Under the pieces are notes generated by a model. It did not search any database. It worked only from the letters and a program-made list of their open reading frames with translations, and was not told the DNA's origin. Shown here in pieces: positions 16,926 to 17,045 of a DNA stretch of 64,000 nucleotides. The number at the start of each line of letters is the position of its first letter. Position 1 is the first letter of the stretch. The position numbers and the translations under genes were made by a program. The DNA is from Escherichia coli. Lineage in GTDB: Bacteria > Pseudomonadota > Gammaproteobacteria > Enterobacterales > Enterobacteriaceae. Location of the stretch: NCBI RefSeq assembly GCF_003334255.1, contig NZ_QOWU01000006.1; one strand, 5' to 3'.

Positions 16926-17004
16926 CAAAAAACCCATCAACCTTGAACCGAAATGGCGGGGTTGATGGGCTCCACAAAATGGGGACATCAAAGAAAAGCA
17001 GTGG
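16926..17004 (-). ncRNA. rybB: RybB small RNA (sigma-E dependent, Hfq-binding, represses OMP mRNAs)
   Basis: Minus strand reads GCCACTGCTTTTCTTTGATGTCCCC...CCCATCAACC...GGTTGATGGGTTTTTT, matching RybB as I recall it, with intrinsic terminator at 3' end; sits in the rcdA-ybjL intergenic region as in K-12. Confidence 0.85.
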
Positions 17005-17045
17005 CACTAATTAAGACTGATGCCCTGCGGAAAAGTTCTGCGGTT
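17005..17045 (-). promoter_or_regulatory. Putative sigma-E promoter of rybB
   Basis: Minus strand upstream of RybB +1 reads cAGAACTTttccgcagggcatcaGTCTTAAttagt, resembling sigma-E -35 GGAACTT and -10 TCTnA elements. Confidence 0.5.

Follow-up and report, generated by a model that had tools for sequence, protein, structure and literature searches.

The interval between the convergent genes rcdA and ybjL on this E. coli contig holds a GC-rich hairpin followed by a run of Us where no coding gene is listed, and it raises the question of whether these sequences belong to an RNA gene in their own right, to the ends of the flanking transcripts, to a small protein or to a phage attachment site. Analysis of the window (i.e., the entire 64,000-nucleotide stretch of DNA considered here) leads us to answer, with a probability of about 0.97, that the minus strand at 16927..17005 is rybB, the gene for an Hfq-dependent, trans-acting sRNA of the sigma-E envelope-stress regulon. 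The features on which this reading is built, in the order of transcription, are:

17050..17056, minus: run of seven Ts at −51..−45, which may serve as an UP-element-like A/T tract (conservation)
17031..17039, minus: sigma-E −35 element AGAACTTTT, −34 to −26 (conservation in 113 species, published consensus)
17012..17017, minus: sigma-E −10 element GTCTTA, −12 to −7 (conservation in 113 species, published consensus)
16927..17005, minus: rybB transcript, 79 nt, GCCACUGC...GGGUUUUUU (K-12 b4417 annotation, RF00110 match, K-12 identity)
16990..17005, minus: 5′ target-recognition (seed) domain, nt 1–16, GCCACUGCUUUUCUUU (conservation, published seed)
16972..16989, minus: linker from seed to terminator, nt 17–34, GAUGUCCCCAUUUUGUGG, A/U-rich and presumed to make an internal Hfq contact (literature)
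16931..16971, minus: Rho-independent terminator hairpin, with a 12-bp outer stem (16971..16960 with 16942..16931) and a 3-bp inner stem (fold, covariation)
16924..16932, minus: U-tract UUUUUUGUU at the 3′ end of the RNA, the Hfq-binding 3′ tail according to published work on Hfq-dependent sRNAs (sequence)
Minus strand read from 17060 downwards: gaaattttttTGCACAACCGCAGAACTTTTCCGCAGGGCATCAGTCTTAATTAGT, continuing into GCCACTGCTTTTCTTTGATGTCCCCATTTTGTGGAGCCCATCAACCCCGCCATTTCGGTTCAAGGTTGATGGGTTTTTTGTT

The original prediction had posited a minus-strand RybB transcript of about 79 nt, to be checked by an Rfam/Infernal comparison and by alignment to K-12 rybB, and both comparisons bear it out. An Rfam 15 scan of the full window, run with gathering thresholds, recovered RF00110 (RybB) at 17002..16924 as the sole Rfam match at this locus (105.3 bits, E=1.3 × 10–20), a score that is 2.6 times the gathering score of 40 bits for this family; the match is full-length, covering model positions 1–79 of 79 without truncation and with a posterior probability of 1.00. 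In the K-12 reference genome (NC_000913.3), the ncRNA rybB (b4417, ‘small regulatory RNA RybB’) is annotated on the minus strand at 887979..888057, between rcdA and ybjL. Aligning NC_000913.3 886000–890500 to the window gave an offset of 871052, which places the K-12 gene at window positions 16927..17005. The RNA thus annotated starts with GCCACUGC at G17005 and has its 3′ end at the last U of the U6 run (16927); the Rfam model is shifted by 3 nt toward the 3′ side of this annotation, starting at A17002 and running through GUU to 16924. The RNA and promoter of the reference K-12 gene are identical to those of the window, seed and terminator included, and across the whole of 16850..17120 (271 nt) the identity to K-12 MG1655 and many other E. 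coli genomes is 100%. Of 5426 complete E. coli genomes, 5419 contain the full length of a 119-nt query comprising rybB and its promoter, which is ≥99% identical in 5255 of 5421 records and has a median of one copy per genome. Seven matches to this query lie on plasmid-labelled records, which may be misassigned contigs or plasmid-borne fragments of the chromosome. In the 4.5-kb comparison, the window differs from K-12 MG1655, and is thus not MG1655, by 16 SNPs, all of which fall in ybjI/ybjJ (14957..15986); this stretch is about 1.6% diverged from MG1655, with 0 mismatches from 15987 to 19448, and the clustering of the differences looks like the edge of a recombination tract.

The earlier observation that the open reading frame track holds no gene at this position agrees with the PGAP-annotated complete RefSeq genomes of E. 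coli, which list no feature under rybB; the curated NC_000913.3 alone annotates it. The missing PGAP feature is an annotation gap and not a biological difference. The range originally assigned to the element, 16926–17045, includes the RNA and the promoter up to −40, leaving out only the T-rich stretch at −51..−45.

For comparison, we collected at least 120 homologous loci from GTDB species-representative genomes with an exact 20-nt pattern from the seed region, so that conservation of nt 6–25 is by construction. The loci among the matches listed come from Enterobacteriaceae, Yersinia, Serratia, Proteus, Providencia, Xenorhabdus, Sodalis and others, and 12 of 12 diverse loci taken from these matches score 65–107 bits against RF00110. 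Promoter conservation was assessed on 113 loci from as many Enterobacterales species among the matches listed, anchored at +1, and the RNA itself on an alignment of 65 distinct sequences among the same matches. In the window, ybjL is encoded on the minus strand (CDS 17082..18767, with its stop at 17082) and the +1 of rybB is at 17005. This arrangement recurs among the matches listed: in 89 of the 113 loci with enough flanking sequence, ybjL is the same-strand neighbor immediately upstream, at a distance of 68–104 nt, and it is absent there in Morganellaceae and some other lineages (24 loci with enough flank). The less conserved neighbor is rcdA, which is found downstream in 40 of the listed loci and is absent in 67 with enough flank.

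We then examined the promoter against the published sigma-E consensus, GGAACTTTT and GTCAAA (PMC1804206). The −35 element AGAACTTTT matches the former at 8 of 9 positions, while the −10 element GTCTTA matches the latter at 4 of 6, with all four positions that are invariant across species (G, T, C and A) present. A GGAACTT-like −35 and a TCTnA-like −10 had been predicted here, and both boxes are indeed found in the sigma-E register, with the correction that the upstream box reads AGAACTT (17039..17033; a 6/7 match to GGAACTT) rather than GGAACTT itself. The spacer from GAACTT to TC is 16 nt, and TCTTA (17016..17012) ends 6 nt ahead of the +1 at G17005. Across the 113 species among the matches listed, GAACTTT (G−33 to T−27) and T−1 are conserved at 98–100% and G−12, T−11, C−10 and A−7 at 100%, whereas in these loci the spacer (−25..−14) is free to vary, as are positions −9 and −8; further upstream, the Ts at −48..−45 are conserved at 85–93%. 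All these conserved promoter positions, as well as +1 to +5, lie outside the pattern used to collect the loci. As a bare motif, GAACTT-N15-17-TCNNA is not significant in the 64-kb window (2 found versus 1.08 expected; 28 of 100 shuffles reach 2), and the case for the promoter accordingly rests on register and conservation. The other match to this loose pattern, at 51888..51915 on the minus strand (GAACTTTTTCTTCCGCCAGTTGATCAAA), would lie antisense inside clpA by the MG1655 offset and is probably a chance occurrence, given the 1.08 expected per window.

An independent point of reference is the K-12 micA promoter, which aligns without gaps in the same register, with GAACT at −33..−29, AGTCT at −13..−9 and an A at −7; like rybB, micA thus combines a −10 element in this register, here GTCTGA, with a similar upstream T-rich tract. 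The reading of these boxes as a sigma-E promoter is therefore supported at the level of sequence by their register relative to the annotated 5′ end, by two near-invariant boxes and by the register shared with micA. According to published work, deleting rpoE in Salmonella leaves the rybB promoter with close to background activity (PMC1804206), and in E. coli this promoter ranks among the strongest sigma-E-dependent ones (PMC4102768, PMC12249550). A generic promoter/terminator scan, which models sigma-70 hexamers only, returned no sigma-70-like promoter in 16700..17300. We also considered an NsrR operator in the rybB promoter and propose no such site, no robust in vitro binding of NsrR having been reported (PMC12249550).

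RybB has been described as a 16-nt seed joined to a 63-nt scaffold (PMC9486967), and the conserved seed CRCUGCUUUU (PMC6694218) is contained in the nt 1–16 domain of the window. The conserved 5′ end of RybB, GCCACUGCUUUUCUUUGAUGUCCCC, is identical in the window, and the centroid fold leaves it single-stranded. No variation is seen at +1 to +5 in the 113 species among the matches listed, though these positions lie outside the search pattern. In the linker, nt 17–25 are identical in all loci listed, partly because the search pattern required them, and nt 26–34 show indels of 1–3 nt among the homologs listed; an Hfq-binding role for the linker is taken from the literature (PMC1804206, PMC9486967). 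As for targets, the 5′ UTR of K-12 ompC contains GCAGUGGC, a perfect 8-nt complement to RybB nt 1–8, and the predicted duplex with RybB nt 1–20 has an energy of −19.3 kcal/mol, which 2.3% of shuffles reach. Codons 5–7 of K-12 ompW contain CAGUGGC, a 7-nt complement to the seed, with a duplex energy of −16.3 kcal/mol with RybB nt 1–20, which is not significant (7–12% of shuffles reach it). Such weak duplex statistics are typical of short seeds, and the regulation of omp mRNAs consequently rests on the literature, which documents Hfq binding, omp mRNA decay and strict sigma-E dependence for RybB (PMC1804206) and defines the E. coli target set along with promoter strength (PMC4102768). Complements of the RybB seed with at most two mismatches number 27 within the window versus 22.8 expected, and no candidate target was recovered among them.

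At the 3′ end, the whole RNA folds with a minimum free energy of −24.1 kcal/mol (z=−2.6 versus dinucleotide shuffles), with the 5′ part left unpaired. As this energy is only moderately unusual, we looked for covariation in the alignment of 65 distinct sequences among the matches listed. Stem cells are paired in 97.5% of cases versus 87.6% in shuffles, and 8 of the 15 stem pairs have changed on both sides (124 cells), typically by switches from A-U to G-C, U-A to A-U and C-G to U-A at stem pairs 6, 7, 8, 10 and 11. The covariation score for these sequences is 0.353, as against 0.176 ± 0.009 in shuffled alignments (0 of 500 reach it), and a control in which the 3′ partners were slid by 1–3 columns yielded at most 0.113. 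The U-tract is kept in 65 of 65 aligned homologs among the matches listed. The strong GC hairpin and U-tract that had been noticed originally are thus substantiated by a 12-bp stem, a U6 run and compensatory changes. The generic scan of 16700..17300 returned no terminator; it allows loops of only 3–8 nt and is silent on this hairpin because the loop here is 17 nt long and contains an inner stem, so that its silence is not evidence against the element.

The proximity of the hairpin to two protein-coding genes raises the issue of whose transcript it terminates. The hairpin begins 24 nt past the end of rcdA (plus strand, 16371..16907), and the original caution that it could be misread as the rcdA terminator was a reasonable one: the stem is able to form on the plus strand as well, although there CTCCACAAAATGG / CUCCACAAAAUGG comes after it rather than a U-tract. 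As the U6 run is on the minus strand only, the hairpin is the terminator of rybB and not a canonical terminator of rcdA; any role it might play for rcdA would be non-canonical. On the other side, we found no terminator-like element with a U-tract between the ybjL stop (17082) and the rybB promoter, and ybjL read-through would probably end at the rybB hairpin; a ybjL terminator role is likely in addition to the sRNA gene. An elaboration of this arrangement is that the ybjL mRNA runs through the rybB promoter and carries the full RybB as its 3′ UTR, in which case processing could yield a basal, sigma-E-independent supply of RybB, or the 3′ UTR could act as a cis-linked sponge or Hfq competitor, with the hairpin perhaps doubling as a partial, U-tract-less terminator of rcdA; we regard this as a rather unlikely addition.

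Considerably less probable still is that the hairpin is only a terminator shared by ybjL (same strand) and the convergent rcdA, with no separate RNA gene. This would fit the lack of a ybjL terminator of its own ahead of the rybB promoter, and hence the probable end of ybjL read-through at the hairpin, as well as the position of the stem 24 nt past the rcdA stop and its ability to form on the plus strand. However, it leaves unexplained the invariant 34 nt upstream of the stem and the promoter boxes in fixed register, while the plus-strand stem has no U-tract trailing it. Moreover, among the matches listed with enough flank, 24 loci have the RNA but no ybjL and 67 have it but no rcdA, a persistence that argues against a mere terminator, and a separate sigma-E-dependent transcript is documented in the reference genome and the literature (PMC1804206).

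The notion that the region encodes a small protein can be dismissed with near certainty: the six-frame list does hold two ORFs (16860..16991, minus, 43 aa; 16953..17090, plus, 45 aa), but indels of 1, 2 and 3 nt in the linker and loop of the homologs would shift any frame, the stem substitutions are compensatory base-pair changes rather than codon-like ones, the minus-strand ORF would start with a TTG inside the RNA and run through the terminator into the reverse complement of rcdA, and no CDS is annotated here in any genome inspected. Both mechanically called ORFs that cross the region were ruled out by these linker and loop indels.

The same locus additionally serves as an attachment site for P2-like prophages:

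16911..16937, no strand assigned: unoccupied attB core of P2-like (Felsduovirus) prophages, overlapping the 3′ end of rybB (BL21(RP) junctions, KP12 attP)

Comparison of the prophage junctions in BL21(RP) delimits a 27-bp imperfect att core at 16911..16937, a site that is empty in the window. Within it, the exactly shared 14 nt, AACAAAAAACCCAT (16924..16937), correspond to the end of the terminator stem and the U-tract, and by the same junction comparison integration regenerates an intact rybB. Among 5423 complete E. coli genomes matching a 271-nt query, the stretch from rcdA to rybB is interrupted in 1196 (~22%), with the break at query positions 197–210, i.e., window positions 16924–16911. 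In both of the two genomes inspected, BL21(RP) and WCHEC025943, a P2-like prophage lies at the break with its ogr end beside rybB; that of BL21, which contains a retron, measures about 21 kb, with ogr at one end and a tyrosine integrase, next to rcdA, at the other. In the Klebsiella phage KP12, the reconstructed attP is found as a contiguous sequence flanked by the integrase and ogr genes (97.4% identity, covering 84% of the query), and Ogr-like genes occur just downstream of rybB in seven loci from other species among the matches listed. All of these features of the attachment site at rybB have already been described (PMC3032704 Table 2; PMC10121019 hotspot #29).

It could be argued on these grounds that the conserved 3′ part owes its preservation chiefly to its use as a phage attachment site, or is a phage remnant, and is not the functional end of a host RNA, with the last 14 nt of the Rfam match being identical to the P2-like attP core and the site being interrupted in ~22% of complete E. 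coli genomes, but this is exceedingly improbable, as the core spans only 16911..16937 and excludes the seed, linker, 5′ stem arm and promoter, whose conservation is no lower, and an intact rybB is restored on integration. As this is the pattern usually seen with phages that target the 3′ ends of conserved RNA genes, the use of rybB by these phages is secondary to its function as an RNA. Just 3′ of rybB, 16906..16926 reads GTTATCTAAAACTTAT in the window and K-12; in E. albertii, E. whittamii and most other genera among the matches listed, the same flank reads GTTGCCTGAAATTT, which is also the attP arm beside rybB of the BL21 lysogen. The occurrence of GTTGCCTGAAATTT both elsewhere and in the attP arm identifies the K-12-type flank as a locally diverged attB arm.

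Read as rybB, the locus would operate according to the accepted model for this sRNA (PMC1804206, PMC4102768, PMC6694218, PMC9486967). As described in the literature, misfolded outer-membrane proteins would trigger proteolysis of the anti-sigma factor RseA and thereby free sigma-E. RNA polymerase with sigma-E would then read AGAACTTTT and GTCTTA, the boxes seen here, whose sigma-E dependence is drawn from the literature, and start at G17005. Transcription would stop at the GC-rich hairpin and U-tract at around 16927, as the elements and their covariation in the homologs imply, and Hfq is expected from published work to bind the U-tail and the A/U-rich linker. The unstructured seed GCCACUGCUUUUCUUU would be free to pair with short complementary stretches of many omp mRNAs, located in the 5′ UTR or the first part of the coding sequence; the targets comprise ompC, ompW, ompA, ompF, tsx, fadL and others, with complementarity to ompC and ompW observed here and regulation taken from the literature. 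By the published account, such pairing would block translation and speed up mRNA decay, and the resulting reduction in OMP synthesis would relieve the stress and feed sigma-E activity back down.

Compared with known relatives, the element itself shows no difference from RybB (RF00110; K-12 b4417; Salmonella RybB), with which it shares length, seed, terminator, sigma-E boxes and its place downstream of ybjL. MicA has in common with RybB its membership in the sigma-E regulon, Hfq binding and the logic of omp mRNA repression (PMC1804206, PMC4102768), but differs in having an unrelated RNA sequence and seed, ompA as its main target and a locus between luxS and gshA. The sigma-E-dependent MicV and VrrA of Vibrio cholerae share the seed CRCUGCUUUU and OMP repression with RybB, and E. 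coli RybB can replace them in V. cholerae (PMC6694218); they nevertheless have other scaffolds, belong to other Rfam families and are not syntenic with it. MicV and VrrA are thus functional analogs of RybB, in which the seed alone is convergent or conserved. As an integration site, rybB resembles ssrA, cyaR and the tRNA genes used by P2-like and P4-like elements, in which the 3′ ends of RNA genes likewise serve as att sites (PMC3032704 Table 2); for rybB, this use is secondary, and the window carries the site unoccupied.

The characterization of RybB dates from 2001–2006 onward, and this sRNA serves as a model for seed pairing. In all respects testable here, the element is the known rybB of E. 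coli, and the assignment, while correct, is ordinary and has little discovery value. Its practical value lies in annotation, in that PGAP genomes have no feature here and scans based on CDS tracks will keep flagging the intergenic hairpin, which is best attributed to rybB, and probably to ybjL read-through as well, but not to rcdA. The rybB locus is likewise of use as a landmark for the insertion of P2-like prophages.

Elsewhere in the window, the Rfam matches at 29700..29780 and 28678..28720 are to naRNA4 (75.5 bits), a palindromic unit of the REP/BIME type, and to ES036/CssrF (42.2 bits), respectively. At 54701..54780 and 54832..54919, a single perfect CRISPR repeat of type I-F (Rfam CRISPR-DR4, 50.1 bits) is separated by a 32-nt spacer from a second, degenerate copy. 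This repeat pair adjoins tRNA-Ser(GGA) on the minus strand and is presumably the mini-array remnant that E. coli lacking I-F cas genes keeps between clpA and infA.
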